A stretch of DNA of 57,202 nt, filler included, from Perkinsus olseni (GCA_013115125.1; 4 parts of 4 records of this genome joined end to end with filler, not necessarily neighbours in it); one strand, 5' to 3'. Counted from the whole stretch's first letter, positions 4,748-55,758 are shown. Notes: generated by a model from the sequence alone, not told the origin. A program made the numbers and translations.

Positions 4748-5287
4748 TAGCAGCAGCTGGAGCAAGCGTCGGAGGACTGGCGGCTGGGACGGTGACCGCG
4801 AGGATGGAGGAAGATCCAGATGAAGTCGGTCGAAGCCTTAGAGCAGGAAGACGTGATGACTAATTCATGTATTGCTCGTTATTAAGGAACGTTTCAATCT
4901 GTTTGTCCGCAAAACTACTCAAAACTCACCCTTGTGTGACAGCCTGCGTTTTGGTGTCTGCTGATCCGAGATGGCGAACTTTGGAATTACTGTCGTGGTG
5001 GCAGCAGGCGCTGAGAGACGTGGCTATTAGACCATGTACAGCACGATGTATAAGCAGAGCTTCTATCGACAATCGTCCGGTGAGAAATAACGGGAGCCAT
5101 GACATAGATTCAGCTTTATAAAAACGATTCCCGATCATTGAAATTGTCCTCAATAACGAGCAATACATGAGTTAGTTATCACTTTTCCCTGCTCTAAGGC
5201 TTCGACCGACTTCTTCTGCATCTTCCGCCATCCTCGCGGTCAACGTCCCAGTCGCCAAGCCTCGGACGCTTGCTCCAGCTGCTGCTA
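4748..5287. repeat. Long imperfect inverted repeat (151-bp arms, 238-bp spacer)
   Basis: 4748-4898 is the reverse complement of 5137-5287 at roughly 85-90% identity by eye. Confidence 0.92.
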
Positions 5288-5385
5288 AGCTTATATTCTT
5301 CCTTTTTTTCCAGGCAAAACGATTCCTGTTGAGCCTCGATAGACCTAAATCGTCCTGATCAGTTGTGTACTTCAAGTTGATTGTT

Positions 5386-8300
5386 ATGGCCGCCAGATCG
5401 AAAGGCTATCGGCCGGTGACCAACTCCTCGAGCTCGACGAGGATCGCGGACTCACCCTCATCGTCTTCGGGTGGGGAAGATTCAGGCCGGAGTGCTGCAC
5501 GCACTCGGAAGATTAACAATAGATTTATCGAGGATATGGGCATTGACGAAGGCATCGAGAAGGGACCTTCTAAGAAGGGACGAAGGTACTGAGCGATGGC
5601 GGGCATGGTCTCCGTAGTGGGTTCCGCTGTAGTACTCGAAGAGGTTGGTGTGACAACTGATAGTTTCGAGGACGATCACGTAAGTGGTATGAGAGTATTG
5701 AAGAGAGGTCACGTAGGAAAAGAGCAATATAGGAATTGGAGGAAGTGCTATTATAGGGACTGTAGTTTGCGAGGCAGCGTCATGTCGTCCGCGAGGAGTC
5801 TTTCACTTTTTTTGATGATTCTTTACCATGTCTACGCGAAAGTTTCAAAGAATTCATCACTGATGAATGGTTCTTTGCTCACATAGTGAATCGTTGACTG
5901 GCCTGTGCTGCTTGCGGGCGTTTGTCTGTCTGTTTGGCTGGTTACGCTTGATAAACGTTCCACTTGCGGTTCGTAGAATATACCATCTCAGACAAAGTTT
6001 ATAATTCCGTTTCCACTCAAAAAAATAGTGAACCCCTTTTCAGTCCACACCTGTCGAAATTCTCCTGGCCGACGAAGCAACAGTTCGTTTCCGCGGGAAT
6101 TGGCTTGGTCGTCGGAGTCGCCGCAGCGGTAATAACAACTTGGGGATGCATCAATCGGCTTAGTGAAGATTGAATTCGATTCGCAGAGAAGTTTAACTTG
6201 ATACCACTCTCGGACAGGCCCAAAAAGAACGCAAGTAGCCTCTTTCTAATGCTTGCTAACAGCCTTACGCGAAGGCCAGACCTTGTTCTATCTACAGGCA
6301 GGAATTTATCGCTCCCGACGTTCCACTAGTCAAAAACCCTCGGATTTTGCATTTTCGCTTTCTTGTATCGCTATTTGAGGAGAGATGTTCTCGTGGAAGT
6401 GCACAGAAAGTCCGAAAACTCTTGACGCCCAATCGTGGTCCTCTAGTTGGGTCCCTATCTTGGCCGGGCAAACGATAATGACTGAATCACCAGCCTCCGT
6501 TCTGGACATCTTTTCTCGGGTTTTCCTCAGCTCCTTCCGCTTGGATTCTCGCCCTCGGATGCCGCAGCCCAGCGTTGTCTGGGTATTTTGGTTGCCGCTG
6601 GCATCTGGTGGGTTCTGGAACCCTGGCCGCCTTACGTCACCTCACTTTGTTTGGGATTGCTGATTGTAATACTGGGAGAGTCACCACGCAGGCGTGGTCC
6701 GAAATTCATCCCCTACGACTCCCCCTTCATCCCCTGACCACCGACGCTGTAGACTTGCGTGTCTGTTGGGGTACTCGTGCGGGTGCTCCACTGCGCACGC
6801 TGGAAGACTTTGATTCGGCTTCTCATCGGAAGGATAATCTGTCCTCGGAATTTGCTTGGAGGGTGACAGAGAGAACTGATCGTTAGACCAAGCCATTCAC
6901 ATCTGTTACGACCGGAAGTGGTTAGCTCATTGTTGTACTTAGTGAGGGTCAATGTGGATTTTACTCGCGTCATTATTGTTAGTATTAGTATATTTGACTT
7001 ATATACCCGATCATTCGTCTCAGTTAAGCGCATGCTTATTGACGGAAAGTGGTACATCCGTTACTGAGCGTAGGGGGGATCACCGTCGATTTTATTTGGC
7101 CGATTTTGCCCGGTCACGAGCAGCTCATGACGGCAAAAATCGCGCGAGTAAAATAAAGCGGAAATTCGTTATTCGAGGTTTGCTACTGCTGTAGCGTGGT
7201 AAATTTCCTGTCTCTATTTATGATGAAATGACCATGAGGATGGCCGACGACGACACAGCAGAGGAATTTTTTATGCATAAACTTGATCAGGTCATCTTCC
7301 GTGTTATGCGGGTTCCGGATCCGTCGTCGATGGCGTTGGTGCCTGCCAGGATTGTCGGAAGTGAAATTGGTGAAGGTAGTGATATTTTCGTCGAGCACAT
7401 ACGATTAACCGATTCGTTAAGTATACCCTCACGCGCAGTTACCGATAGATTGATTATTCATTTCACTCGCCTTCGACTTTGATTTCGGTACTATTGGGTA
7501 TGTCAGACTCACAGCCCAGAGCACTTGTAACGATTTGCGTGCTACCGTTTTATTATCACTTTCTTAATCGCTGATGCGATACGTAGCGGTTGGATTACTT
7601 CTCTTGCTCCTCAGCGGAAGCACTTCCACCGTCAGCGGCAGCAGTGGTGGTCTCTGCGGCATACTTCGATCCTGTCATCTTCCTCTTTATTTCCGGCTTC
7701 GCAATGGGACAAGCTTTGGAGAAGTAATATACTCGACATAATCGATCACGTGATCGATTTGGCGTATCTTCTTAACCCAGGTTTCACATCACGGAGCGGC
7801 TAGCAACCAGACTACTTTCTCGAGTGGCCACAGGAGGCGATCGGCTCGCCATTGTAATACTGAGGGGAAATATGATTCGGGTGGCCGTAGGTTTCCAAGT
7901 GTTGTAGTAAGAGTGGTACCACCTGTATGTGCGCGCAATGGTTGTTGAACGCTCGGACAGGATACTGGGTGAACCAATTCGTTACGCAAATCGGAAAATT
8001 TGAAATTTTTCCCGAAAGCACGAAGTTGCTACAGACCAAAATTGTGAGAGCAATTTATTTTATTCATAGAAAAATATAAACTTACAACGCTGTAGGATGC
8101 TTCTGCGCAGTAGATACTCATCAATCAAGACTGCGGCATAGCAGCATTCCGCTTCGCTCCGCCTTTTGTTCATCATTTTTCTCGCTCACGGAGGGTAGAC
8201 CGATCGTCGTGGTTGTTGTAGGTAATATTGTGTTTGGGTCTCTTCGTCTCGGGGGCCCTCTCTAATGTGGCGACGGCGGTTCTGTTAACGGCCGTTGTTG

Positions 8301-10518
8301 CACCAGTGGCTAGAGAGCTCTCCGACTCGGAAGCGAAGAGAGCTATTTTGGAAGTGGCGTTTGGCTGTACTATGGGGACGCAGGTTCAATCCCGGGCGGA
8401 GTCATTTTCTTCAAAAGTTAATCTCGTGCGCTGTATTGAATGAACGGCCTCGCCACTTTGGCAAGGCGGACTGACATGCGCTCGGCTTTCTGATCCACAC
8501 GTTGCATATCCGAACTCTAGGCGATCTCTTGATGACTCGTCGATCGCCCTAATGGTGTTGCCAAGTGGAGGGGGGACGCTTTGTTCGAAGGCCAGACCCG
8601 GAGACCCTCGGTTCGAAACCTGTCGCCGGCTCTTTTCGCTGCTCGCTTTATCATTTTCGCGCGTCTAGGATACAACTGTATCTGGTCCACCAGTACACGA
8701 CGGCCATACCGCCTCGAGTATTCTTCGGAAAATAGAAGAATTAATTTTTCGTGTATTTTTTCGTCCAACGTGCAGCTGGAATGCCGGGGAGACCTTGGAA
8801 ACTTTTTCACGTTTCCTTTCCCCAGGTAACGTCGGTGGGATGATAACACCGGTCGCATCGCCCCAGAACGTGATCGCCCTCGTCGCCTTGCGTAGTACTG
8901 GGAGAACTAATTTCGTGGCGCGTGACGCTGTGCTGTTCCCTAGGTTCCAACGGAGGTTCCAATTTATCCTTCATGCAGTGGATCGTTTTCGCCCTCCCCA
9001 TTTGCGTGCTCGCGGCGACTTCAGTTTTCGCGGTTCTGAAATTTATGTACGGCGGCCGACGGAGCGACGCAAAGCCTTTGGAACTGACCGAGAGGCGACG
9101 AGATTCCAGCGACGGTAATGATGGTAAATTCTCTGACACTGTCTTTCTCGCGCGCCCAGCTGATCGATTTCTCTTCTCGGGAACAAGACAGGGAATCTGT
9201 CATTGCGCGCGTAGGTGTGCACAGAGGCTCTGAAGACTCGGAGATGCAGTTGCGTCACGCGCCACTAAATTCCACCGATTGGACCATCATCGGTAAGCCC
9301 TCCACGCATGGCCCCTTCCGCGTTAGTCGTTCGCTTCAGGTATAGTTTGCGCGACGGTGTTCCTGTGGATGATATTTGATCTTGCGGGTCTTCAAAGTGT
9401 ATTTGGCAGTATGGGAATGGTTGGGCTGATGGCGGTGGTGGCCTTCCATAGTCTTGGCATCCTCACGACCGAGGATTGGCACGGCATGCAGGTGGTTCCA
9501 GGGGATAGGTTACGGCGTTGGAATCGGATCAAGGGAGATCGAAAATCAAAGTTTGTCTTCTCGGAGGGAAACTGTCCCGATTTCGCCCGAAAATTCAAAA
9601 TTTCTGGAGGAATCCAAGTCGAGTAAGTGCTGGGGTGAATCATACAGTTGCCATTCCGAAGAAGTCCGAGTCGTCGTGAGCCGGCATTGAGACTTCTTCC
9701 TTTTCTTCGTTTGTTTGTGCGTGCTGCTAACTTGACGAGTAGCAAGATTCCAAGTTTCGTCAGATGTTTCGAGGGATCGCATTGCGTCGTCTCCTACGCA
9801 GCGAGGAGAGGTTCCCTCCGGAAACAGTTTTTCCTTTTCTCAGTGGTCGGTCCTGACACTTCTCGGCGGCGGCGTGGCTCTCGGCAACGCAGTGGAAAGC
9901 TCGGGCCTTCTACGTATTCTCGCTGACGGAATCTCCAAGTCCCTCGAAGGCTCGAGTGTCTGGGCGAGCGCGGTTTGCTTTTTCGTTTGTACGGGATTGG
10001 TCGCCAACTTCCTCTCCTCTACCGTCTGTGCCATCGTAGCCTTGCCCGTGGTTGCCAAGGTAGGCGTTTCCTCCATATTTTAGGGCGAGCGAGATTTACT
10101 TCACCTTCTCAGGTGGGCGCAGTAGTTGGTCACCCCCGTTTATTCACCGTCGGATGTGCGTTGATGACATCAGCGGCGATGAGCCTGCCGGTTAGGTGAG
10201 CAGGGACGTGTGAGACCATGAATTTCTCTTCAGATTGAATCGATCAGCTGATCGATTTGCCACCGGTACTGAGTGTAAATCTTCGTTCAGTTCCTTCCCG
10301 AATGCCAACGCGGCGGGAGTAGTCCATTTGTCGTTACCGGGAGCGCCACCTGCGCCAGTGTTACAGTCCAAGGACTTTGTAAAGTCAGGTACGCCGGGAT
10401 CGATCCGGGGACCTTCCGGTTGTGAAGTCTTCACTTGTCAGGTTTCACTGTGGCCCTACTGATTTTAATCATACTCAGCACTGTCGGGTATGCATGGGCT
10501 ATGTTTCTCGGCTGGTGA
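5386..10518 (+). CDS. SLC13/DASS-family (Pho87/Pho91-like) anion or phosphate transporter, multi-exon
   Basis: Exons give QRCLGILVAAGIWWVLEPWPPYVTSL (~6570-6680), FDPVIFLFISGFAMGQALEK (~7614-7723), LSNVATAVLL, GNVGGMITPVASPQNVIA, SFMQWIVFALP, NFLSSTVCAIVALPVVAK, SAAMSLPV|SSFPNANA, and end ..GYAWAMFLGW* at 10518. Start codon is tentative. Confidence 0.85.
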
Positions 10519-14355: not shown

Positions 14356-14455
14356 NNNNNNNNNNNNNNNNNNNNNNNNNNNNNNNNNNNNNNNNNNNNT
14401 TAATTAATTAANNNNNNNNNNNNNNNNNNNNNNNNNNNNNNNNNNNNNNNNNNNN
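14356..14455. other. Artificial scaffold linker (N44-TTAATTAATTAA-N44)
   Basis: N runs around a six-frame stop cassette. Confidence 0.98.
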
Positions 14456-28685: not shown

Positions 28686-28785
28686 NNNNNNNNNNNNNNN
28701 NNNNNNNNNNNNNNNNNNNNNNNNNNNNNTTAATTAATTAANNNNNNNNNNNNNNNNNNNNNNNNNNNNNNNNNNNNNNNNNNNN
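28686..28785. other. Artificial scaffold linker
   Basis: N44-TTAATTAATTAA-N44. Confidence 0.98.
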
Positions 28786-39405: not shown

Positions 39406-40389
39406 ATGAAAGCCTTCCTTTACGGACAGGAGGATCCTGATAAATACCTGTGGCACGACCATTTTGACGTGCCCGAACCCGAGAACAAGAAGCAGGTTCA
39501 AGTGAAGGTCTTTGCGGCCGCTTTAAATCCTGTCGACTATAAGCTTCCCCATCTCCCTCGTGGAAACAGGGTCAAGGGGCAGCCTATCGGTTATGATTTC
39601 GCTGGTCGGATCACTCGCACCACTGATGATTGTGAATACCAAAAAGGTGACATGGTCTTCGGCAAGGCTCTTAAGGGCTGTCTAGCTGAGTACACATTAA
39701 CTGATGTTGATCACATCGCCCGGGTCCCTCCCCAGATCGAGCCAAAGATTGCTGCCGCGTTGCCCGTTGCTAGTCTCTTTTCCCTACAGGTTCTAAGACA
39801 CGGTGGTTGTGGTGAGAATGATGGCAAAGGCAAGAGCGTCCATGTCATCGGCGCTAGTGGTGGAGTTGGGTCAAGTGCGGTGCAGATCGCTAAGGCCAAC
39901 GGCTGCAAGGTCTATGCTGTCTGTGGCCCCTCCAGTATCGACTTTGTCAAGTCCCTAGGAGCTGATGTCGTGATGGACTACTCTAAGGAGGGCTTCGAGC
40001 TGCCCAACGACGACTGCCCTGCTGGAACCATGGACATGGTCTTTGATTCGGTTACTAGCCCTGTTGACCCTAACTACGAGCCCACGGCGAGGAGGACTCT
40101 GAAGGCTGGTTGCAAGTACATCTGTGGTCACTCCCCAAGCAAAATGGATTGGGCGAGGTACCTTGTGTGGTACTACACTGGCATCAACGTGCAGAGGAAG
40201 AATTACTCCTTGCTGTGGACTAACACGAACCCTACCGATTTGAATAAGCTCTCGCAGCTGGTTATGGACGGTAAACTCAAAATCAACATTAACGACCTTC
40301 CCTTCAATGAGGCGAACTGTAGGAAAGCTTATGAGCTCCTGAAAAGCAGGAGGGCTAAGGGGAAGATAGTCATCGTGATGGAAAAGTAG
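39406..40389 (+). CDS. Zinc-independent MDR oxidoreductase (copy 5)
   Basis: 327 aa; GASGGVG. Confidence 0.93.
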   Translation: MKAFLYGQEDPDKYLWHDHFDVPEPENKKQVQVKVFAAALNPVDYKLPHLPRGNRVKGQPIGYDFAGRITRTTDDCEYQKGDMVFGKALKGCLAEYTLTDVDHIARVPPQIEPKIAAALPVASLFSLQVLRHGGCGENDGKGKSVHVIGASGGVGSSAVQIAKANGCKVYAVCGPSSIDFVKSLGADVVMDYSKEGFELPNDDCPAGTMDMVFDSVTSPVDPNYEPTARRTLKAGCKYICGHSPSKMDWARYLVWYYTGINVQRKNYSLLWTNTNPTDLNKLSQLVMDGKLKININDLPFNEANCRKAYELLKSRRAKGKIVIVMEK

Positions 40390-41531: not shown

Positions 41532-42518
41532 ATGAAAGCATTCCTTTACGGGCAGGAAGATCCTGATAAATACCTGTGGCACGACAACTTTGACGTACCC
41601 GAACCCGAGAACAAGAAGCAGGTTCAAGTGAAGGTCATCGCGGCCGCTGTGAATCCTATCGACTATAAGCTTCCCCATTTCCCTCGCGGAGACAAAGTCA
41701 AGGGGCAGCCTATTGGTTATGATTTCGCTGGTCGTGTCACTCGAACCACTGATGGTTGTGAATATCAAGAAGGGGATATGGTCTTCGGCAAGGCTCTCAA
41801 GGGCTGTCTAGCTGAGTACACGTTGGCTGATGTTGATCACATCGCCCGGGTTCCTCCTCAGATCGAGCCCAAGATTGCTGCCTCGTTGCCTGTTGCTAGT
41901 CTTGTTGCCATGCAGGGTCTGAGGCTCGGTGGTTGCGGTGAGAATGAAGGCAAAGGCAAGAGCGTCCTTGTTATCGGCGCTAGTGGTGGAGTTGGGTCAA
42001 GTGTGGTACAGATCGCCAAGGCCAACGGCTGCAAGGTCTATGCTGTCTGTGGCTCTTCCAATATCGACTTCGTTAAGTCTCTAGGAGCTGATGTCGTGAT
42101 GGACTACTCTAAGGGGGGCTTCGAGCTGCCCAACGATGACTGCCCCGTTGGAACCGTGGACATGGTTTTTGATTCGGTCACTAGCGCTGAGGACCCTGAC
42201 TACGAGCCCACGGCGAGGAGGACCCTGAAGGCTAGTGGGAAGTACATTTGCGTGAACTCCCCGCGCAACATGGATTGGGTGAGGTATCTTGTGTCCTACT
42301 ATACTGGCATCAACGTCCAAAGGAAGAACTACTCCTTGCTGTGGACTGATACCAACCCTAAGGATTTGGACAAGCTCTCGCAGCTGGTGATGGACGGTAA
42401 ACTGAAGATCAATATTCAGGAGGACCTGCCCTTCAATGAGGCGAACTGCAGGAAAGCATACGAGCTCTTGAAAAGCAGGAGGGCTAAGGGGAAGGTCATC
42501 ATCGAGATGGGCAAGTAA
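41532..42518 (+). CDS. Zinc-independent MDR oxidoreductase (copy 6)
   Basis: 328 aa; closest to copy 5, including alignable flanks. Confidence 0.93.
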   Translation: MKAFLYGQEDPDKYLWHDNFDVPEPENKKQVQVKVIAAAVNPIDYKLPHFPRGDKVKGQPIGYDFAGRVTRTTDGCEYQEGDMVFGKALKGCLAEYTLADVDHIARVPPQIEPKIAASLPVASLVAMQGLRLGGCGENEGKGKSVLVIGASGGVGSSVVQIAKANGCKVYAVCGSSNIDFVKSLGADVVMDYSKGGFELPNDDCPVGTVDMVFDSVTSAEDPDYEPTARRTLKASGKYICVNSPRNMDWVRYLVSYYTGINVQRKNYSLLWTDTNPKDLDKLSQLVMDGKLKINIQEDLPFNEANCRKAYELLKSRRAKGKVIIEMGK

Positions 42519-42981: not shown

Positions 42982-43081
42982 NNNNNNNNNNNNNNNNNNN
43001 NNNNNNNNNNNNNNNNNNNNNNNNNTTAATTAATTAANNNNNNNNNNNNNNNNNNNNNNNNNNNNNNNNNNNNNNNNNNNN
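42982..43081. other. Artificial scaffold linker
   Basis: N44-TTAATTAATTAA-N44. Confidence 0.98.
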
Positions 43082-43096
43082 CGCTGATTTGATTCA

Positions 43097-43178
43097 GACA
43101 CTTTGGCCGAGTGGTTAAGGCGGCGGCCTGCTAAGCCGTTGGGCTATGCCCGCGAGGGTTCGAATGCCTCAGGTGTCG
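43097..43178 (+). tRNA. tRNA-Ser(GCT)
   Basis: 82-nt cloverleaf GACACTT..AGGTGTC-G, anticodon loop CTGCTAA, long variable arm; one T-stem mismatch (GAGGG/GCCTC). Confidence 0.85.
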
Positions 43179-43226
43179 TCTGTACGCCATCGGTTGACGA
43201 AGCAACATCGGCAGGATCTGAAACAA

Positions 43227-43293
43227 TGCCCGATGCATGATTCGAACCTACGACCATCTGCTCCGTAGGCAGACATTCTATCCAGCTGAACTA
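43227..43293 (-). pseudogene. tRNA-Arg(ACG), 3' part (nt 8-74) of the interrupted gene
   Basis: TAGTTCAGCTGGATAGAATG-TCTGC-CTACGGA-GCAGA-TGGTC-GTAGGTTCGAATCATGC-ATCGGGC-A; the 5' acceptor strand is replaced by element sequence. Confidence 0.9.
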
Positions 43294-45264
43294 GGCTAGG
43301 GGGAAAATGGCGCCCGGGCGCGGGGGAAAAATTGAAATAAAAAGAGGAGAGAAAAGAGAAAAAGAGAAGAAAAAAAAGAAGAAAAAAGAGAAGAAAAGAG
43401 AAAGAGAAAGGAGAAGAAAAAATAAGCGAAGCATGGAGATAGCGCCAGCCGCTGCGAATATAGCGGATGCCATACTCCACCCTCCAAGCTTCAAGCATAT
43501 GCTCGAACTGGGAAGAAGCGCGGCGCGCGACGCTCGAACACGTTATAGATACTCAGTTCCCACGCGCGACGCCGTGACGCCCGAACAGTCCGCGCCACGA
43601 ACTCGAATCGAAGACAAGGTACACAGCATTAGCATGATGAATTGCAAAGTCTTCAAACGTTCTTCATCTATTCTTTTTCCTGTCGTTCGCCTCCCTCCAG
43701 CGGTCCCTTTTCCTCTGCACTTGCTCAGCCGAAAGCCTGTCTAGTTCTGCTTCACTATCCAAGAGTGGGCACCAGATCACTTGCGTATATTTTTTCTCGG
43801 TCCCGGGAACTCGGAACTGCTGGTGATTGAGTGAACGCCCATCGCGAACTAACCATGATTTGTACGGCCGCCTGCATTTTGAGCACTTACGACCGGGCTT
43901 ATCACCACCCTTCAGAGTATCGGAGACCAAGACTTGCTGGATTGCAGCTTCAGTCCGCTGATGCAGTTGGTTTCGATCCTCTTTCATCTTATCTTCCGCA
44001 ACAGCATCGCGCAGGGGACATAACCCATGAGTGCTCCCATCGTATGTGTGATCGTTGAAGCCTTTCCGGAGAATTTTCCCGCAAAACCTACATTTTCGTC
44101 CCTTGAAGTCCCTCGTTTGTGGTCGCAGCTCTCCGGCCTGTTTCCCGCGCCGCGAGCTCGATTGCGCTACGTTTTCAGGAGGACTGCTTCTCTTACGCTT
44201 CCGAGGTCGACTCCCCAACTCTTCCTGCAAGGTCTCGGCGCTTATTGCTGCAGGTCCGCCATCCAGCTCTTCGTGTTCATGAACAACGACAGTCGCGTCG
44301 ATCGGCGGCTCGCCGGAAGGCTGGGCCGCAAGCGACCTCTCAAGGCTTCCAAATGCCTCCATGCTCCTGAGATCCAAGCTACCAGCCGACCCCGCGAAAG
44401 AGCTGCGCTTGCGGAACCCCGACAACCATTGCTCCACGTAGAGAATAGACGTTGGATGATAAGATATGGGCCGCCTCCCATCAATCTCGTGGTTGGCACG
44501 TTCTTTCATGAGATAGTCGCGAGTATAGAGTTTTAAAAGTTCGGGGGCGGTGGCAGTAGGATTATCCACATGAAGAGTGGTGAAAGCGCGCTCCATCGCA
44601 CCACCCACCTCATGATCCACACGGAAGTAGCTTGCGCTGTGCGCTTTAGTGCGCCATCGCAGAAACTTGCGACGCTGAGTAGCAACGGGTAGCGGATCCA
44701 GGGAAGCCACATGATCAATCTCCTCCTCCGAATCCGTACTGTCGTCACAATCAGACTCGCCCCATTTCTTCCCAGCAGCATCGGCGTCTCCCAGCTCACC
44801 TTCTAGAATAGACTTGAACCCCTCACTTTCCGAGTCGGCCGTAGTGTCCCTCTCGTCGTTAACGATTTCGTGAAGCATCTCGACTCTGTCGCTAATCCAA
44901 GGCGATTCTCGGCTCAGCACAGCCGAGAATGGGTCCTCCAATGGGCGAACGACTTTCCGGTGATTCTTCTTGGGAGCGGTGGTTCTTGGTTGGGACATCA
45001 AGTGGTTGATCGACAAACAATGAAAGAGACAGGAAATGAACGAACCATCGAACGAGGCCCTTAATCCAAAATTAAGGTCCGCGGTCGAAAATCAAGGTCC
45101 GCGGTAAACACCACTAGGAGCGCCTTGAACCCGCCCACACCTTAAAGAGCCCTGGTAAAGGGATGCAGAGGAGTCCAGGCTCCTATACCTCTCAGAGAGG
45201 TATAGGAGCCTACCTCCGACCTTATTTTACCGCGGACCTTAATTTAGCACGCATCCAGTTCAGA
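43294..45264 (-). mobile_element. tRNA-targeting Dada-like element, copy 1
   Basis: Lies between 12-bp direct repeats CCAGCTGAACTA at 43282-43293 and 45265-45276, which are tRNA A-box sequence. Confidence 0.85.
43664..44998 (-). CDS. Element-encoded protein (444 aa from first ATG) with two C-terminal Cys/His zinc-finger-like motifs
   Basis: CRFC..H..HGLC and CSKC..HQQF..WCP; basic NLS-like RPRKRKR; acidic N-terminal tract; no recognisable DDE, RT or tyrosine-recombinase core. Confidence 0.75.
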   Translation of the reverse strand: MSQPRTTAPKKNHRKVVRPLEDPFSAVLSRESPWISDRVEMLHEIVNDERDTTADSESEGFKSILEGELGDADAAGKKWGESDCDDSTDSEEEIDHVASLDPLPVATQRRKFLRWRTKAHSASYFRVDHEVGGAMERAFTTLHVDNPTATAPELLKLYTRDYLMKERANHEIDGRRPISYHPTSILYVEQWLSGFRKRSSFAGSAGSLDLRSMEAFGSLERSLAAQPSGEPPIDATVVVHEHEELDGGPAAISAETLQEELGSRPRKRKRSSPPENVAQSSSRRGKQAGELRPQTRDFKGRKCRFCGKILRKGFNDHTYDGSTHGLCPLRDAVAEDKMKEDRNQLHQRTEAAIQQVLVSDTLKGGDKPGRKCSKCRRPYKSWLVRDGRSLNHQQFRVPGTEKKYTQVIWCPLLDSEAELDRLSAEQVQRKRDRWREANDRKKNR

Positions 45265-45276
45265 CCAGCTGAACTA

Positions 45277-47247
45277 GGCTAGGGGGAAAATGGCGCCCGG
45301 GCGCGGGGGAAAAATTGAAATAAAAAGAGGAGAGAAAAGAGAAAAAGAGAAGAAAAAAAAGAAGAAAAAAGAGAAGAAAAGAGAAAGAGAAAGGAGAAGA
45401 AAAAATAAGCGAAGCATGGAGATAGCGCCAGCCGCTGCGAATATAGCGGATGCCATACTCCACCCTCCAAGCTTCAAGCATATGCTCGAACTGGGAAGAA
45501 GCGCGGCGCGCGACGCTCGAACACGTTATAGATACTCAGTTCCCACGCGCGACGCCGTGACGCCCGAACAGTCCGCGCCACGAACTCGAATCGAAGACAA
45601 GGTACACAGCATTAGCATGATGAATTGCAAAGTCTTCAAACGTTCTTCATCTATTCTTTTTCCTGTCGTTCGCCTCCCTCCAGCGGTCCCTTTTCCTCTG
45701 CACTTGCTCAGCCGAAAGCCTGTCTAGTTCTGCTTCACTATCCAAGAGAGGGCACCAGATCACTTGCGTATATTTTTTCTCGGTCCCGGGAACTCGGAAC
45801 TGCTGGTGATTGAGTGAACGCCCATCGCGAACTAACCATGATTTGTACGGCCGCCTGCATTTTGAGCACTTACGACCGGGCTTATCGCCACCCTTCAGAG
45901 TATCGGAGACCAAGACTTGCTGGATTGCAGCTTCAGTCCGCTGATGCAGTTGGTTTCGATCCTCTTTCATCTTATCTTCCGCAACAGCATCGCGCAGGGG
46001 ACATAACCCATGAGTGCTCCCATCGTATGTGTGATCGTTGAAGCCTTTCCGGAGAATTTTCCCGCAAAACCTACATTTTCGTCCCTTGAAGTCCCTCGTT
46101 TGTGGTCGCAGCTCTCCGGCCTGTTTCCCGCGCCGCGAGCTCGATTGCGCTACGTTTTCAGGAGGACTGCTTCTCTTACGCTTCCGAGGTCGACTCCCCA
46201 ACTCTTCCTGCAAGGTCTCGGCGCTTATTGCTGCAGGTCCGCCATCCAGCTCTTCGTGTTCATGAACAACGACAGTCGCGTCGATCGGCGGCTCGCCGGA
46301 AGGCTGGGCCGCAAGCGACCTCTCAAGGCTTCCAAATGCCTCCATGCTCCTGAGATCCAAGCTACCAGCCGACCCCGCGAAAGAGCTGCGCTTGCGGAAC
46401 CCCGACAACCATTGCTCCACGTAGAGAATAGACGTTGGATGATAAGATATGGGCCGCCTCCCATCAATCTCGTGGTTGGCACGTTCTTTCATGAGATAGT
46501 CGCGAGTATAGAGTTTTAAAAGTTCGGGGGCGGTGGCAGTAGGATTATCCACATGAAGAGTGGTGAAAGCGCGCTCCATCGCACCACCCACCTCATGATC
46601 CACACGGAAGTAGCTTGCGCTGTGCGCTTTAGTGCGCCATCGCAGAAACTTGCGACGCTGAGTAGCAACGGGTAGCGGATCCAGGGAAGCCACATGATCA
46701 ATCTCCTCCTCCGAATCCGTACTGTCGTCACAATCAGACTCGCCCCATTTCTTCCCAGCAGCATCGGCGTCTCCCAGCTCACCTTCTAGAATAGACTTGA
46801 ACCCCTCACTTTCCGAGTCGGCCGTAGTGTCCCTCTCGTCGTTAACGATTTCGTGAAGCATCTCGACTCTGTCGCTAATCCAAGGCGATTCTCGGCTCAG
46901 CACAGCCGAGAATGGGTCCTCCAATGGGCGAACGACTTTCCGGTGATTCTTCTTGGGAGCGGTGGTTCTTGGTTGGGACATCAAGTGGTTGATCGACAAA
47001 CAATGAAAGAGACAGGAAATGAACGAACCATCGAACGAGGCCCTTAATCCAAAATTAAGGTCCGCGGTCGAAAATCAAGGTCCGCGGTAAACACCACTAG
47101 GAGCGCCTTGAACCCGCCCACACCTTAAAGAGCCCTGGTAAAGGGATGCAGAGGAGTCCAGGCTCCTATACCTCTCAGAGAGGTATAGGAGCCTACCTCC
47201 GACCTTATTTTACCGCGGACCTTAATTTAGCACGCATCCAGTTCAGA
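45277..47247 (-). mobile_element. tRNA-targeting Dada-like element, copy 2 (tandem)
   Basis: Near-identical to copy 1 at an offset of 1983; third direct repeat at 47248-47259. Confidence 0.85.
45647..46981 (-). CDS. Element-encoded zinc-finger-like protein, copy 2
   Basis: Protein identical to copy 1. Confidence 0.75.
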   Translation of the reverse strand: MSQPRTTAPKKNHRKVVRPLEDPFSAVLSRESPWISDRVEMLHEIVNDERDTTADSESEGFKSILEGELGDADAAGKKWGESDCDDSTDSEEEIDHVASLDPLPVATQRRKFLRWRTKAHSASYFRVDHEVGGAMERAFTTLHVDNPTATAPELLKLYTRDYLMKERANHEIDGRRPISYHPTSILYVEQWLSGFRKRSSFAGSAGSLDLRSMEAFGSLERSLAAQPSGEPPIDATVVVHEHEELDGGPAAISAETLQEELGSRPRKRKRSSPPENVAQSSSRRGKQAGELRPQTRDFKGRKCRFCGKILRKGFNDHTYDGSTHGLCPLRDAVAEDKMKEDRNQLHQRTEAAIQQVLVSDTLKGGDKPGRKCSKCRRPYKSWLVRDGRSLNHQQFRVPGTEKKYTQVIWCPLLDSEAELDRLSAEQVQRKRDRWREANDRKKNR

Positions 47248-47266
47248 CCAGCTGAACTAATCGGGC
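47248..47266 (-). pseudogene. tRNA-Arg(ACG), 5' part (nt 1-19) of the interrupted gene
   Basis: GCCCGATTAGTTCAGCTGG; GCCCGAT pairs perfectly with ATCGGGC at 43234-43228. Confidence 0.9.
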
Positions 47267-47376
47267 GACTAGGAGTGAAGGATTAACCCCTTCGGAGCCG
47301 AGAAGTGCGTCCCTACATGGAACCTATATAGTGTACCATGGGTAAATTCTATATCGGTCCTTATGCTGATTTGGTT

Positions 47377-47458
47377 TACACTTTGGCCGAGTGGTTAAGG
47401 CGGCGGCCTGCTAAGCCGTTGAGCTATGCCCGCGAGGGTTCGAATCCCTCAGGTGTCG
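47377..47458 (+). tRNA. tRNA-Ser(GCT), second copy, possibly decaying
   Basis: Matches 43097-43178 except G1>T, one variable-arm change and an intact T-stem; flanks are homologous too. Confidence 0.75.
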
Positions 47459-48319: not shown

Positions 48320-48372
48320 GACCCTTTGGCCGAGTGGTTGAGGCGGCGGTCTGCTAAGCCGTTCGATCCCCC
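48320..48372 (+). pseudogene. Truncated tRNA-Ser(GCT) pseudogene
   Basis: GACCCTTTGGCCGAGTGGTTGAGGCGGCGGTCTGCTAAGCCGTT joined directly to CGATCCC; variable arm and 5' T-stem deleted. Confidence 0.8.
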
Positions 48373-48705: not shown

Positions 48706-50802
48706 CTATAACTTACTGCGTGATAACGAAGAGTCAAACAGCTTCCTCGCTATCCGTCTTAGCCGTTCATCAACCTCAGATCTCGCAACGTACTCTTCAG
48801 CAATCCTGATAAGTTCATCCATACTATCATCATCAGCCTCATCCAACTCCACCGCTCGCGGCAGATCCGGTTGAAGGCGATAGTAAACATCAGAGTCGAG
48901 GATGTCCCCCAGGATATGCGCAGTGACCTCCGTGGACGTCGCGCTGTACACCATCGCAAGAAGGTCGCGGGTTATCGAATACAGGCCGGCCTTGGCGGTG
49001 TAAGTAGCGCCGAGGTCCTCGATGGGGACTCTCCCAGTACCGATACTGACGAGGCACTCGACCCTTCGATTCGGGAAGACCCGAGCGGCCTCGTGTAAGG
49101 CCAAGTGCGCCGGGTTGTTAGCAACCATAGCGCCGTCTTGTATAACTCTACCGTCTTCTAAAACCACAGGGGCAAAGTATACCGGTGCCGCGGTGGTAGC
49201 TCGGGCGCAATGATAGATGGGAACCGAGCGATCGCCCTGGTAACGGCCGGAACCCTCTGGACCGTAGGAGTAGTTTCGGAAGAGAAAAGGTTCTGGTGGC
49301 GCTACGTTGGTAAGAGCCGTGACAACAGCGACTTTCGTGTTGCTTCCGCACAATGCACTGGTGTCCACCATAGACAGCCGACCGTAGACGTCCCGGAGGT
49401 AGTTGGTCATGGCGCGACTATCGTGCTTCTCGCCTTTAATGAGGATCCGCAAAAGCTTTTCGACGGAGCCTAGAGTGCCTCCCTTAGAGAAAGCAGCGAT
49501 GCTGATGTCTCGTGCCACCGAGGAACTCATTTCCAATGGCAAATTCAGGCACCCTATTCCGAGCGCGACCAGACCACCTGCGCTGGTGCCAACCACGAGG
49601 TCAAAGTAGCGACCTATACGCTGGTCAGGGAGGTACTTCGCGAGGGCTTTGAGAATCGTGATAGTCAATAGAGACCGAGTCCCCCCGCCGTCCAGGGCGA
49701 GAATACGAACGCCTCGCTGGCAACGCTGCAACGGCTGGTCAGTCCGGGCTCTGCTGCCACCAAGAGCACGTCGAAACCACGACCCGAAACTCGACAGGAG
49801 ACCATTGGTGGTCGAAGGCGCCTCACTAGGCGCATCGTCACCGTCCATCACCGAGGGGGCCAACAGGAGTTGCAACCTTCTCAGGAGAAGTCGCTCTACT
49901 GGACCATCTGCGCTCGAGGGAATGCAGGTCGAATCAACGGCGTTTGGGTGACCCTCGGCGACCGCGTTGAGGTAGTAGACGCCTTCAAGCGTTCCAGAGG
50001 CGACCGCTTCGGGTAGGGTTGGTCCGACCACTTCGAACGGGACACGACCAGCAAGAGCGGCAGCTAGGGCCCAGTCATGAGAGCTGACCGTGTTAAACAA
50101 CCTCAGTGCATCAACGCTATCAAGAAAACACCCCTCACCGTCAGGGGAAGCAGGCAAGTCTTCGACACCCAGTTGGGGTCTGCGGACTCCGACGGGTGTC
50201 AGTATTCTAACCAGACGGTCATAGCTCGGGAGAACCGCCATTGAGGGCCGGCCGAGAGACGCGTACAGAATCGCCCGAGCGCGGTCGTGGCCGTCCAGAG
50301 CCATCTTAAGGAGAATATTGAGATCACTTCTTGCTATGCGTCCACGGCCACGAACTATGAGACACAGGCACTGGGTCACTAGGACCGATATGAAGCTGGA
50401 AGGTGACAGCAAGGCGCGGAGCTCCGCGATGGTGAGCCAGGGGTCACCGAGGCGAAGACTGTAGTAGTCAGCGATGACACCAATGATGGGCGAGGGCTCT
50501 GGCCACGAGCACTCCCTGAGGAGCCCGACGAGAAAGGCCATAATCTGTTTTATGCAAGGGTCAACCTCGACTTCCGCTAGTAAGGACTGTCTCAGGACTA
50601 TGAGACCCTCTTCGACTAGCGACCGACTTAAAGCGTAGATAACGATTGGTCCAGCGGGGAGGGCCTTGAGAATACGGTAACTCTGCCGGGGTGTTCGCGA
50701 GGCCAGGATAACGCTGAGAGCCGAAACTTCCGAGTCCACCTTGGTTCGAGGCAGCCGAGCGGCAACGGGGTTCCATCGAAGCGCATGCAGTAAAGGGAAC
50801 AT
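48706..50802 (-). CDS. Patatin-like phospholipase (PNPLA8/iPLA2-gamma-like), intronless
   Basis: 698 aa; RILALDGGGTR, GTSAG, ARATTAAPVYF, DGAMVANNP, LVSIGTG. Confidence 0.93.
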   Translation of the reverse strand: MFPLLHALRWNPVAARLPRTKVDSEVSALSVILASRTPRQSYRILKALPAGPIVIYALSRSLVEEGLIVLRQSLLAEVEVDPCIKQIMAFLVGLLRECSWPEPSPIIGVIADYYSLRLGDPWLTIAELRALLSPSSFISVLVTQCLCLIVRGRGRIARSDLNILLKMALDGHDRARAILYASLGRPSMAVLPSYDRLVRILTPVGVRRPQLGVEDLPASPDGEGCFLDSVDALRLFNTVSSHDWALAAALAGRVPFEVVGPTLPEAVASGTLEGVYYLNAVAEGHPNAVDSTCIPSSADGPVERLLLRRLQLLLAPSVMDGDDAPSEAPSTTNGLLSSFGSWFRRALGGSRARTDQPLQRCQRGVRILALDGGGTRSLLTITILKALAKYLPDQRIGRYFDLVVGTSAGGLVALGIGCLNLPLEMSSSVARDISIAAFSKGGTLGSVEKLLRILIKGEKHDSRAMTNYLRDVYGRLSMVDTSALCGSNTKVAVVTALTNVAPPEPFLFRNYSYGPEGSGRYQGDRSVPIYHCARATTAAPVYFAPVVLEDGRVIQDGAMVANNPAHLALHEAARVFPNRRVECLVSIGTGRVPIEDLGATYTAKAGLYSITRDLLAMVYSATSTEVTAHILGDILDSDVYYRLQPDLPRAVELDEADDDSMDELIRIAEEYVARSEVDERLRRIARKLFDSSLSRSKL

Positions 50803-54147: not shown

Positions 54148-55758
54148 CTAAGGGCCATCGCTCTCCTCCTGCTGCGGCTGCCCCTCGAGAATCGGAGCAT
54201 ATAGTGTTTGCCTTCTCCGACTGGTCCATCCTTCCACTACTGTCCTCAGCGTCTCCCCTACTTCCCATAAGCTTAACAGCACCACCATTACCACATAAGC
54301 CAGGCAAATCATAGCGAACAAGTCCCCAAGGATGGCAGCGATCGTGCGAGTACCTCCCAGAGTTACCTCTCCTACCAGTACCCTCTCGACTGGCTCTATG
54401 CTCTGGAAGCTAGCAACCACACTACCCCACCCATCGATAATCGCAGAATCCCAGGCGCCGTCAGCCTTCACCACAGGTATGCCATTTTCGATCGCTCTAA
54501 AGACGCTCACGCCGAAATGGTTACGCATAGAACTCCAGTCGTTCGAGGGGTTCAGTATGATCGACGCCCCGAGGCTAGCGACTTCCCTAGCGGTCGAAGG
54601 GAAGTCCATATCGTAGCAGATCAGAGTGCCAGCCTTGCCAAGGACACTACTATTGACCACTGCCAGCTCTGGACGCACAGAGTTGACAAGGTAAGGGATG
54701 TTGAATAGGGGATACCCGTACTTGGCTGTATTCCTCTCACCAGCAACCCAGAAGGGACACTGCTTGCCATAGACGCTAACGACCCGTCCTTGCTCATCAA
54801 TGGTGACTGCTATGTTCTGAGAGGGGTAAACGGTGACACCCACTGTCAGAATGATGCCGAGCCTTCGGACAGAAGGAGCTAGCTCCTTGTGAAGGAAGAG
54901 CTGGAGGGATGCTTGGTCGGCAAAGCCACTCAGCCAGGCTTCGGGCCAAACGACGAGCTTCGCTCCGCTGTCGATCGCCACCGATTCGGTGAGCTCGAGC
55001 ATCCTCTGGACGCTGCCGTTGCAGGGTAGTCGACCACCCACGTGGATGATCTCCTTCCGGCCGCCGCAAGCGTAGGGAAAGAGGTTCCCGGGAGTCACAG
55101 TAGCGACGGTGACGCTTTCCCTACCAATGCCATGGCCCATCTTGAGAAGCAACAAGCTTAGCGTCACCCAGAACAGGAGCACACAGAGAGCTTTGAGAAG
55201 GCCCTTGCGCAACGTCTGCGAAGAGGCTGTCAACAGGGAAGCAAGATAGAGGTTACTGTAGACCAGTAGTAGCTCAATGCCAAACACCCCGACCACCGAG
55301 GCTGGCTGAATCAACCAGGGCACCACGTGAAGGGGCAGGCTGAGGAGCTCGAAGGTGCCGATCTGACTGCTGATGGCGAACCACAGAGCCACCCACATGA
55401 CCGAATATCGTAGTGGCTGTGATCTAGGGTAGTCTTTAGCGAAGACAGATGAGTCCGCTGCCACCAGGAGCGTCCATCCACCGCCAATCAGAAGCCCGAA
55501 GCCGAGCCCTAGCACCATGGGAAAGCCTTGGACCATACAGCGGAGCATGGCGGTGAGAGGGAAGACGATGAGGGCGATGGATGGTACTTGTTGCTGTGCT
55601 AGAAAGAGCGGTACGAGAGCGACAAAACAAAGTGGCCAGAGCTCGATGATGGTGTCTACGGTGGGAAGGTGGACGGAGCGGAGGTTATCTAGTATGATGG
55701 TTGATAGGCTTAGTAGGAGGAGGGTCCTCATCTTCTCTGAAGGCCATTGGGGTCGCAT
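54148..55758 (-). CDS. Apolipoprotein N-acyltransferase (Lnt)-like membrane CN-hydrolase, intronless
   Basis: N-terminal TM helices, LIQPASVVGVFGIELL, nitrilase triad VVWPE / YGK / ICYD, SND, FRAIENG, C-terminal TM after LGD. Confidence 0.82.
   Translation of the reverse strand: MRPQWPSEKMRTLLLLSLSTIILDNLRSVHLPTVDTIIELWPLCFVALVPLFLAQQQVPSIALIVFPLTAMLRCMVQGFPMVLGLGFGLLIGGGWTLLVAADSSVFAKDYPRSQPLRYSVMWVALWFAISSQIGTFELLSLPLHVVPWLIQPASVVGVFGIELLLVYSNLYLASLLTASSQTLRKGLLKALCVLLFWVTLSLLLLKMGHGIGRESVTVATVTPGNLFPYACGGRKEIIHVGGRLPCNGSVQRMLELTESVAIDSGAKLVVWPEAWLSGFADQASLQLFLHKELAPSVRRLGIILTVGVTVYPSQNIAVTIDEQGRVVSVYGKQCPFWVAGERNTAKYGYPLFNIPYLVNSVRPELAVVNSSVLGKAGTLICYDMDFPSTAREVASLGASIILNPSNDWSSMRNHFGVSVFRAIENGIPVVKADGAWDSAIIDGWGSVVASFQSIEPVERVLVGEVTLGGTRTIAAILGDLFAMICLAYVVMVVLLSLWEVGETLRTVVEGWTSRRRQTLYAPILEGQPQQEESDGP

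Follow-up and report, generated by a model that had tools for sequence, protein, structure and literature searches.

The question raised by this locus of Perkinsus olseni is what separates the two ends of a tRNA-Arg(ACG) gene, and how that sequence came to lie there twice. The window, i.e. the whole stretch of 57,202 nucleotides analysed here, is made up of four contigs with 100-bp linkers between them; the one that carries the locus starts at position 43082. Our explanation, which we consider quite probable, is that the region comprises two head-to-tail, internally deleted, non-autonomous copies of a Dada element inserted in a Perkinsus tRNA-Arg(ACG) gene, Dada being DDE DNA transposons with a fixed insertion site in multicopy small-RNA genes. 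The features of the locus are listed below, the minus strand being the tRNA strand.

43227..43287, minus strand: tRNA-Arg(ACG) 3′ part, nt 14-74, including anticodon and T arm (B box) (Rfam, ARAGORN)
43288..43293, minus strand: putative 6-bp target-site duplication (TSD) TAGTTC, first copy, tRNA nt 8-13 (12-mer positions; 6+6 division by analogy)
43294..45270, minus strand: element copy 1, with a length of 1977 bp under a 6-bp TSD; internally deleted, non-autonomous, probably Dada-type
43664..44998, minus strand: 444-aa ORF, copy 1, C-terminal half of the family's transposase
45048..45245, no strand assigned: subterminal repeat block of copy 1, upstream of the ORF (same block at 47031-47228 in copy 2)
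45271..45276, minus strand: putative TSD, middle copy, between the two elements (12-mer positions)
45277..47253, minus strand: element copy 2, differing from copy 1 at 2 positions
45647..46981, minus strand: 444-aa ORF, copy 2, protein identical to that of copy 1
47254..47259, minus strand: putative TSD, third copy (12-mer positions)
47260..47266, minus strand: tRNA-Arg(ACG) 5′ acceptor strand, nt 1-7, tRNA-strand sequence GCCCGAT (ARAGORN after restoration of the site)

The interrupted tRNA gene

In the unmodified window no tRNA-Arg was called by ARAGORN, and the Rfam tRNA match at 43227-43296 on the minus strand (34.7 bits) covers the 3′ part only. The first-pass annotation, made from the sequence alone, had proposed that excision of 43294-47259 restores a tRNA-Arg(ACG) with a perfect acceptor stem, and this is indeed the case: when 43150-43293 was joined to 47260-47360, ARAGORN called a 74-nt tRNA-Arg(acg) with 7/7 acceptor pairs. 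The restored molecule has one non-pair, G:A, in the T stem, so the target may be a variant or decaying gene copy. Unique sequence flanks the insertion on either side, and the two flanks together make up one complete tRNA gene, with both element copies located between its nt 1-19 and its nt 8-74. Since the A box and the B box are now about 4 kb apart, the gene is considered to be inactivated.

Tandem units and their ends

Two head-to-tail units of 1983 bp each, 43282-45264 and 45265-47247, differ at only 2 positions (43766 T/A and 43904 A/G), and BLASTN alignment of 43294-45276 with 45277-47259 gives 99.899% identity over 1983 bp, in agreement with the near-identical units of the same period reported in the first-pass annotation. 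The single 12-mer said there to flank and separate the units was found as well: CCAGCTGAACTA on the plus strand, which reads TAGTTCAGCTGG on the tRNA strand, is present at three positions of the window only, 43282, 45265 and 47248. When one mismatch is tolerated the count is 3 against 0.21 expected, and 1 of 100 shuffles likewise gave 3.

The terminal repeat checks confirmed that terminal inverted repeats (TIRs), LTRs and a poly(A) tail are missing, as had been claimed: no inverted match of at least 9 nt was detected between the terminal 150 nt, terminal direct repeats are absent, and there is no poly(A) at either end. All the strong inverted repeats are confined to one subterminal stretch of 200 bp. 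The block there contains AAGGTCCGCGGT in two direct copies, one inverted and one degenerate copy around a 17+17-nt palindrome, and its single strand has a folding z score of -8.08; it may represent candidate transposase-binding sites or a promoter. A scan of the ORF-upstream end for promoters and terminators found none, the models being bacterial and the host eukaryotic. In addition, a 7-nt inverted pair, AGTTCAG/CTGAACT, joins the target 12-mer and the first 20 nt of the element.

Insertion site and putative target-site duplication

At this one locus the insertion site corresponds to tRNA nt 8-13 (TAGTTC, inside the A box) followed by AG, and on the tRNA strand the first bases of element copy 1 are AGCTGG, identical to tRNA nt 14-19. 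In Perkinsus marinus, Dada families with neither TIRs nor introns are found at tRNA nt 8-13, where the sequence is TAGCTC followed by AG, and it has been argued in print that this TAGCTC(AG) consists of the TSD plus element bases identical to the tRNA. By analogy, the 12-mer most likely comprises a 6-bp TSD, TAGTTC, and the element's own end, AGCTGG, which would coincide with tRNA nt 14-19 by chance. The direct repeat here is 12 bp long versus 6–7 bp for Dada TSDs, a length compatible with the 6+6 division. The 7+5 division given earlier as an example is, by the same analogy, less likely, the TSD published for nt 8-13 being 6 bp long.

The 444-aa ORF

On its tRNA strand, each unit possesses an intact ORF of 444 aa. 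The two encoded proteins are identical, so both DNA differences are synonymous. In the predicted layout the N-terminal part is acidic and disordered; the protein further has a helical domain and a pair of CCHC zinc fingers, C303/C306/H317/C327 and C372/C375/H392/C410, the first of which has the form C303-x2-C306-x10-H317-x9-C327; the spacing published for the C-terminal CCHC finger of Dada is C-x2-C-x9-H-x8-C. Neither the D, D, DxxH and E residues of the catalytic domain are present in the ORF nor the N-terminal CCCC finger in the copies of the window. In alignment A1 the protein aligns with its long relatives only past the E column, with both CCHC fingers kept.

Pfam assigned no significant family to the ORF (best E 0.15). 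The predicted structure has a mean pLDDT of 65.2, and Foldseek found no PDB match for it at E ≤ 0.001 (best 0.41), which leaves the C-terminal half without an assigned fold except for its zinc-finger motifs. A word-indexed search with the ORF as a query gave three proteins with E ≤ 0.001 among 8000 candidates scored, only from Perkinsus, and all named ORF relatives come from Perkinsus. A search for longer homologues with the same query gave none, and the metagenome scan yielded 82 pattern matches for the ORF and 151 for the relative P0031, with no relatives among either. Within the window, the 187 fetched proteins revealed no relative encoded elsewhere, all 42 of the 42 tblastn matches being inside the two units.

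Full-length relatives and the catalytic domain

The P. olseni protein P0188 (832 aa, partial) is identical to the ORF at 212 of 217 aligned residues, starting from ORF residue 23, and carries 615 further residues upstream of the matching part. These match Pfam DUF6729 (36.9 bits versus a cut-off of 27) and include a CCCC zinc finger, recognised by reading, two catalytic D residues and a DxxH motif. In P0002, which belongs to the same 90% cluster, the residues D86, D153 and D180xxH183 line up with the catalytic columns. P0188 and P0002, 98% identical over the shared part, are the only long forms seen; both are partial, and their gene models do not contain the segment with the catalytic E. With residues 100-560 of P0188 as a query only its own cluster was found, and the searches found no intact autonomous partner for the copies in the window.

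The catalytic domain is complete in the long, more distant relatives of alignment A1, where CCCC, D, D, DxxH, E and the C-terminal CCHC fingers are present in 9 of 9 proteins; this layout matches the one published for Dada transposases. The spacing between the two D residues is 61–69 residues, and the distance from the last Cys to the first D in P0006 is 135; the values published by Kojima & Jurka for these spacings in Dada-U6_DR are 68 and 135. The DDE-bearing proteins P0185 (E 8e-20) and P0193 (E 9e-42) have C-terminal parts homologous to the ORF, which is also homologous to P0057 (E 1e-47). P0057 is encoded on a P. marinus contig of 9263 bp, and the Dada-tIB_PMar representative spans 4075-9263 of its contig; P0193 is encoded on a contig of 493,656 bp, and Dada-tIA_PMar is given at 491397-486732. 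The link of P0057 to Dada-tIB_PMar and of P0193 to Dada-tIA_PMar is circumstantial.

The core of the P0185 model (residues 382-674) fits best to the IS256-family transposase ISCth4 (Z 9.1, rmsd 3.7 over 197 residues), then to foamy-virus integrase cores (Z up to 6.6) and Hermes (Z 5.9). The model is poor (mean pLDDT 53.1), and Foldseek gave no PDB match for it at E ≤ 0.001, the best being 0.76 for ISCth4. Among 25 relatives, Pfam reported DUF6729 in eight, all under the cut-off. In the Atlas, P0188 and P0006 adjoin DUF6729 clusters from Chordata, fungi and Cnidaria, followed by Mutator, IS256 and ISL3; these neighbours agree with the host taxa and the distant kin named in print for Dada.

Because the DDE domain is absent from the ORF and present in the long form of the family, the units are best regarded as internally deleted, non-autonomous Dada copies. 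Dada traits observed directly are the fixed small-RNA-gene site (at one locus), the absence of TIRs, the short subterminal inverted pair and the CCHC fingers of the ORF, and those found through the long relatives are DDE with DxxH and the N-terminal CCCC finger. The first-pass annotation had proposed a Dada-like, tRNA-targeting DNA transposon in a Perkinsus-like genome, and the Perkinsus relatives, the CCCC/D/D/DxxH long form and the position at nt 8-13 all support that proposal. The internal deletion and the loss of the DDE domain in both units had not been seen in it. In each copy, about 600 or more codons encoding the N-terminal CCCC finger and the DDE/DxxH core would have been lost, leaving a short N-terminal stub fused in frame to the C-terminal half with its two CCHC fingers. 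As the catalytic core is lost, the copies would be immobile alone and would be mobilised in trans by a full-length member of the family.

Origin of the tandem arrangement

Given two non-autonomous Dada copies, the tandem most likely arose, as we hold with moderate confidence, when the first insertion had left two 12-mers and a second took place into one of them. A single Dada insertion later doubled by unequal exchange, or by slippage during replication, between the flanking direct repeats would leave the same unit-12-mer-unit product, and the difference of only 2 in 1983 positions between the copies also suits it; we consider this route rather unlikely nonetheless, as 12 bases are very short for unequal exchange, tandem Dada-U1 copies have been described, transposable-element dimers in Drosophila are reported to stem mainly from insertion-site preference, and a target-specific element that leaves its 12-mer on both sides has an obvious path to double insertion. 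That the assembly laid out one insertion, or two haplotypes of one, twice is improbable. The contigs are short, about 14 kb, and joined by linkers, the element starts 212 bp from the contig start, and the units differ at two sites only, as alleles might; against this, the internal junction of element end, 12-mer and element start would have to occur in reads for an assembler to write it, the unique flanks on both sides complete one tRNA gene, and tandem Dada copies are known.

Helitrons carry 5′-TC and CTRR-3′ termini and insert between A and T. The GC-rich 12-nt palindrome about 16 nt before a CTAG end on the ORF strand and the TC after the 12-mer at the other end bear a superficial likeness to such termini, but a rolling-circle element of this kind, a class that also has no TIRs and may form tandem arrays, is very improbable, since a Rep/helicase is missing, the family of the ORF is one of DDE transposases, the bases flanking the termini are not A and T, and the insertion site is the canonical Dada site. 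We also give little credence, less than to an assembly error, to a circular or abutted-end intermediate, produced either by a site-specific recombinase with a 12-bp core or by IS256-like copy-out/paste-in with a reactive dimer junction. Core-site recombination would leave one and the same 12-mer at each of the three junctions, the solved fold nearest to the catalytic core is that of ISCth4, described as a copy-out/paste-in IS256-family transposase (PMC7780238), and tandem dimers are reported as intermediates of IS30 (PMC9333248); however, no recombinase domain was found in either the ORF or the long form, and transposons of this transposase class in eukaryotes are regarded as making TSDs.

Two further element types were rejected. 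For a Crypton or another recombinase element, Pfam found no recombinase family in the ORF, P0001–P0003 or P0188. For a site-specific non-LTR retrotransposon, no reverse transcriptase was found in the 444-, 145- and 169-aa ORFs (three of the eight ORFs of at least 60 aa per unit), and the ends have no poly(A).

Implications

The locus adds one more case to an element type already known and leaves the knowledge of how such elements work unchanged. It offers a clean instance of a tandemly stacked deletion derivative, adds tRNA-Arg(ACG), with TAGTTC followed by AG, to the tRNA genes struck by Perkinsus Dada at the conserved nt 8-13, and links the N-terminal region of the Perkinsus family to Pfam DUF6729, for which the literature searched has no function on record. 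For the annotation of Perkinsus, a parasite of molluscs, it explains one class of "hypothetical proteins" and broken tRNA genes.

There is a slight chance that the tandem is itself part of how the family moves or persists. Abutted ends with one TSD could act as a reactive junction of the sort present in the tandem dimers and minicircles of IS256- and IS30-type elements, which the family core most resembles; if this were true, Dada would be the first eukaryotic transposon shown to use copy-out/paste-in. Alternatively, the tRNA-mimicking end (AGCTGG together with the inverted AGTTCAG) might make occupied sites favoured targets, so that arrays would grow in one sacrificed tRNA gene. Under either variant the intact 444-aa zinc-finger ORF, devoid of the catalytic half, could serve as a truncated-transposase regulator.

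Comparison with known elements

IS256 (ISCth4), MuDR and hAT share with this family the RNase-H-like DDE core, into which a helical domain is inserted, and C/DxxH after the second D; unlike the element here, they have TIRs and no small-RNA-gene specificity, and no significant sequence or Foldseek match to them was obtained. Titles and the starts of abstracts of the papers retrieved on P. olseni transposable elements and genomes contain nothing on Dada.

The closest systems are the Dada families of the same genus, which likewise occupy tRNA nt 8-13 in the A box at TAGxTC followed by AG, have no TIRs and possess intronless coding regions. Their catalytic half is missing from the copies described here, and the linked proteins P0057 and P0193 are only about 33–35% identical to the ORF. 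The identity with the tRNA beyond the TSD is 6 nt here versus 2 nt in the published families, and the target is tRNA-Arg(ACG) with TAGTTC, whereas the main texts of the Dada papers name Ile, Leu, Gly and Tyr as Perkinsus targets (the supplements may list more). A tRNA-Arg target at nt 8-13 with a putative 6-bp TSD has been reported for the fish Dada-tR (Kojima 2022, PMC8869645, the only source in the literature searched to use this transposon name); the likeness is by target only, its hexamer being TGGCGC followed by AA instead of TAGTTC followed by AG, and its hosts being vertebrates.

Both internally deleted derivatives and tandem copies of Dada are already in print, which the first-pass annotation did not know. 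The zebrafish Dada-U6N1_DR is a non-autonomous deletion derivative of Dada-U6_DR, made up of 231 bp of its 5′ and 1567 bp of its 3′ part and inserted at the parent's site; the unit here similarly combines a short ORF-upstream part with about 1.6 kb of the 3′ part, in another host, target and family, and the deletion here leaves an intact in-frame 444-aa ORF. Finally, the zebrafish elements Dada-U1A_DR and Dada-U1B_DR, which target U1 snRNA genes, are described as head-to-tail copies with a single TSD between them, the same arrangement as in this tRNA-Arg(ACG) gene.

Structure of the tandem insertion

A tRNA-Arg(ACG) gene is interrupted by two head-to-tail copies of a 1983-bp unit, arranged as follows.

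43227-43293, reverse strand: 3′ two-thirds of the tRNA-Arg gene
43282-45264: unit copy 1, 1983 bp
45265-47247: unit copy 2, 1983 bp
47260-47266: seven bases completing the tRNA acceptor stem

The copies differ at just two positions, 43766 (T/A) and 43904 (A/G), with a BLASTN identity of 99.899% across 1983 bp, and both are bounded and separated by the 12-mer CCAGCTGAACTA (TAGTTCAGCTGG on the tRNA strand), which lies at 43282, 45265 and 47248 and is absent elsewhere in the 57 kb (3 matches observed with one mismatch permitted versus 0.21 expected). In the unmodified window, Rfam scored the 3′ part of the tRNA-Arg alone (34.7 bits) and ARAGORN called no tRNA-Arg; once 43294-47259 had been excised by script, ARAGORN returned a tRNA-Arg(acg) of 74 nt in which every acceptor-stem position is paired and the T stem has a single G:A non-pair. 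No terminal inverted repeats were detected in the unit, inverted matches of at least 9 nt between the terminal 150 nt being absent and the strong inverted repeats all being confined to a single subterminal block, nor were terminal direct repeats found or poly(A) seen at the unit ends. The first-pass annotation, which had described near-identical units with a period of 1983 bp, a common 12-mer around and between them, a 74-nt tRNA-Arg(ACG) with a perfect acceptor stem restored by removing 43294-47259, and a lack of TIRs, LTRs and poly(A), is thus correct in its observation on every checkable point.

Insertion site and element ends

On the tRNA strand, GCCCGAT (nt 1-7) is followed by TAGTTC (nt 8-13) and AGCTGG (nt 14-19). 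According to Kojima 2022 (PMC8869645), five fish lineages of this DDE DNA transposon superfamily and the Perkinsus elements Dada-tIA, tIB, tY and tG are inserted at nt 8-13 with putative 6-bp target-site duplications (TSDs), the Perkinsus hexamer being either TAGCTC with AG after it or TAGTCT with AA after it. In Kojima & Jurka 2013, the apparent 8-bp repeat TAGCTCAG is argued to be a 6-bp TSD plus two element bases. By the same logic, the 12-mer at this single locus would be composed of the TSD TAGTTC and an element end, AGCTGG, equal to tRNA nt 14-19, and such a 6+6 split would give elements of 1977 bp at 43294-45270 and 45277-47253.

Directly after AGCTGG the element carries CTGAACT, an inverted copy of AGTTCAG from the 12-mer, which recalls the target-matching sub-terminal inverted repeats reported for Dada-U6 and Dada-U1. 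The end upstream of the ORF contains AAGGTCCGCGGT three times exactly and once in degenerate form around a 17+17-nt palindrome and folds far better than shuffled sequences (z -8.08); a promoter or binding sites may be located here.

At the ORF-distal end, about 16 nt inside each element, there is a GC-rich 12-nt palindrome, GCGCCCGGGCGC (43310-43321 and 45293-45304), with a long purine-rich low-complexity tract inward of it.

The ORF of the units and its probable internal deletion

Each unit has one long ORF. Both ORFs encode the same protein, which makes the two DNA differences between the units synonymous.

43664-44998, tRNA strand: 444-aa ORF
45647-46981, tRNA strand: 444-aa ORF

No significant Pfam family was found in the ORF, and a word-indexed protein search returned three relatives, each from Perkinsus.

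P0001, P. marinus: 69% identity to the ORF
P0002, P. olseni: 96% identity to the ORF across 161 residues
P0003, P. olseni: 56% identity to the ORF

P0188, a cluster mate of P0002 (832 aa, partial), is identical to the ORF at 212 of 217 aligned residues starting at ORF residue 23, and has 615 more residues upstream of that point. As P0002 and P0188 both reach far upstream of the start of the match, the units in the window are short versions of a longer P. olseni element. The initial ~25 ORF residues are unlike P0188 and show a weak likeness, in an R-x3-D-P-F/Y-S motif, to the very start of full-length paralogues, which suggests that ~1.8 kb or more may have been deleted internally with the reading frame kept.

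In the alignment of the ORF with its long relatives, the ORF is aligned solely beyond the column of the catalytic E, without the CCCC, D, D, DxxH and E residues, and retains two C-terminal CCHC fingers (C303/C306/H317/C327 and C372/C375/H392/C410). Its predicted model, for which no PDB match was found, has an acidic, disordered first third, then a helical domain (~110-225) and, at the C-terminus, a region of fingers and strands predicted with confidence. Since none of the 187 fetched relatives matched the window outside the two units and the ORF lacks the catalytic residues, the units are non-autonomous.

The long-form protein family

An exhaustive HMMER search with P0002 yielded 149 proteins at E <= 0.001, with the matches lying chiefly in P0002 residues 40-280; among the 30 clusters examined, 18 were from Perkinsus (olseni, chesapeaki, marinus) and three from diatoms. 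All nine long relatives in the alignment share an N-terminal CxxC...CxxC finger, a first D, a second D directly before CC, the LDxxH and RGTSxxExxHS motifs and C-terminal Cys/His fingers at two CCHC positions, the first finger being incomplete or absent in five of them. The first and second D lie 61-69 residues apart, and in the relative P0006 the first D is 135 residues from the final Cys of the first finger. In Kojima & Jurka 2013, this motif set is named as common to all Dada transposases, and the positions listed for Dada-U6_DR (D567/D635/E811 and C432) give spacings of 68 and 135.

Residues 108-287 of P0188, directly upstream of the DDE core, correspond to the Pfam domain DUF6729 (36.9 bits, cut-off 27), spanning the CCCC zinc-finger region; the domain was also detected in 8 of 25 more distant relatives, in all cases under the cut-off. 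Chordates, fungi and cnidarians supply most of the Atlas clusters with DUF6729, and such clusters are the neighbours of P0006 and P0188, with Mutator, IS256 and ISL3 transposases coming next. No function of DUF6729 is on record in the literature searched, and it may be nothing other than the domain found at the N-terminus in transposases of the Dada type.

The gene models of P0002 and P0188 both lack a segment of ~95 residues which bears the catalytic E (RGTSxxExxHS) in paralogues: either these long copies are defective too, or the segment was passed over as an intron in the gene models. Among the long forms found, none was an intact autonomous copy.

Structural comparison of the catalytic core

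The AlphaFold model of the relative P0185 is poor (mean pLDDT 53.1) and Foldseek gave no match to it at E <= 0.001. A second-look aligner was applied to residues 382-674, which include D2, DxxH and E, with D1 (D377) lying just upstream.

ISCth4 (IS256 family) transposase: Z 9.1, rmsd 3.7 Å over 197 residues
Foamy-virus integrase cores: Z up to 6.6
Hermes: Z 5.9

In Kojima & Jurka 2013, Dada is described as having a DxxH-bearing DDE core that distantly resembles MuDR, hAT, P, Kolobok and IS256, and a weak HHpred similarity to retroviral integrases. The motifs, spacings, DUF6729, structural fits and Atlas placement of the long relatives all agree with the published description of Dada.

Origin of the tandem

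Tandem Dada-U1 copies with one TSD between them were reported by Kojima & Jurka 2013, and dimers of transposable elements are common in Drosophila, where they are ascribed mainly to insertion-site preference. A first insertion would leave a 12-mer on either side, one with tRNA nt 1-7 upstream and the other with nt 20-74 downstream, and a second insertion into either would produce exactly the observed structure. Duplication of a single insertion, the product of which would be identical, is a less probable but real alternative. An assembly artefact is conceivable, though less probable, since an assembler would have needed reads containing the internal junction. A second insertion into a regenerated 12-mer is our preferred reading, by a modest margin.

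Genomic surroundings

The window is composed of four contigs end to end in descending length (14355, 14230, 14196 and 14121 bp), so features are not readable across the linker points. The filler (14356-14455, 28686-28785, 42982-43081) is 100 bp each time, with two 44-N runs 12 bases apart, and these 12 bases read as TTAATTAATTAA in the third linker. The contig carrying the tandem begins at 43082, 15 bp ahead of a tRNA-Ser(GCT), and includes two cellular genes.

48706-50802, minus strand: patatin-like phospholipase gene (Pfam E 4.9e-25)
54148-55758, minus strand: membrane protein with a CN-hydrolase domain (Pfam E 1e-20)

Flanked by such genes, the locus is ordinary chromosomal DNA. Intact tRNA-Ser(GCT) genes lie at 43097-43178 and 47377-47458 and have 35 nt of downstream spacer in common (117 nt, 94%); a third copy (~48322-48363) has the 5′ half alone, to just beyond the anticodon loop, followed by unrelated sequence, and may be a truncated or rearranged tRNA-Ser. 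In the preceding contig, segments 40000-40388 and 42126-42517 (85% and 88% identical, 2126-2129 bp apart) look like a tandemly duplicated coding segment.

Comparison with described Dada families

By the tests available, the element is a member of the Dada superfamily and behaves like one; the Dada-like identity proposed in the first-pass annotation is supported by the long-form motifs, the spacings, the fit of the core and the nt 8-13 site, all matching published Dada. Searches of the literature on Dada-tR, P. olseni transposable elements and DUF6729 gave nothing further. The nearest described kin are the tRNA-targeting Dada families of P. marinus. P0057 from P. marinus, which matches the ORF at E 1e-47, is located on a 9263-bp contig, the printed Dada-tIB_PMar representative being 4075-9263, and P0193 (E 9e-42) on a 493,656-bp contig, with Dada-tIA_PMar printed at 491397-486732; both links are circumstantial.

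Internally deleted Dada derivatives and tandem Dada copies are already known. Compared with the Perkinsus Dada families in Kojima & Jurka 2013 and Kojima 2022, the target, tRNA-Arg(ACG) with TAGTTC, is new, as is an identity between element end and target as long as 6 nt. In fish, tRNA-Arg is a described target: Dada-tR is inserted there at the same position, with TGGCGC as the hexamer (Kojima 2022, PMC8869645).
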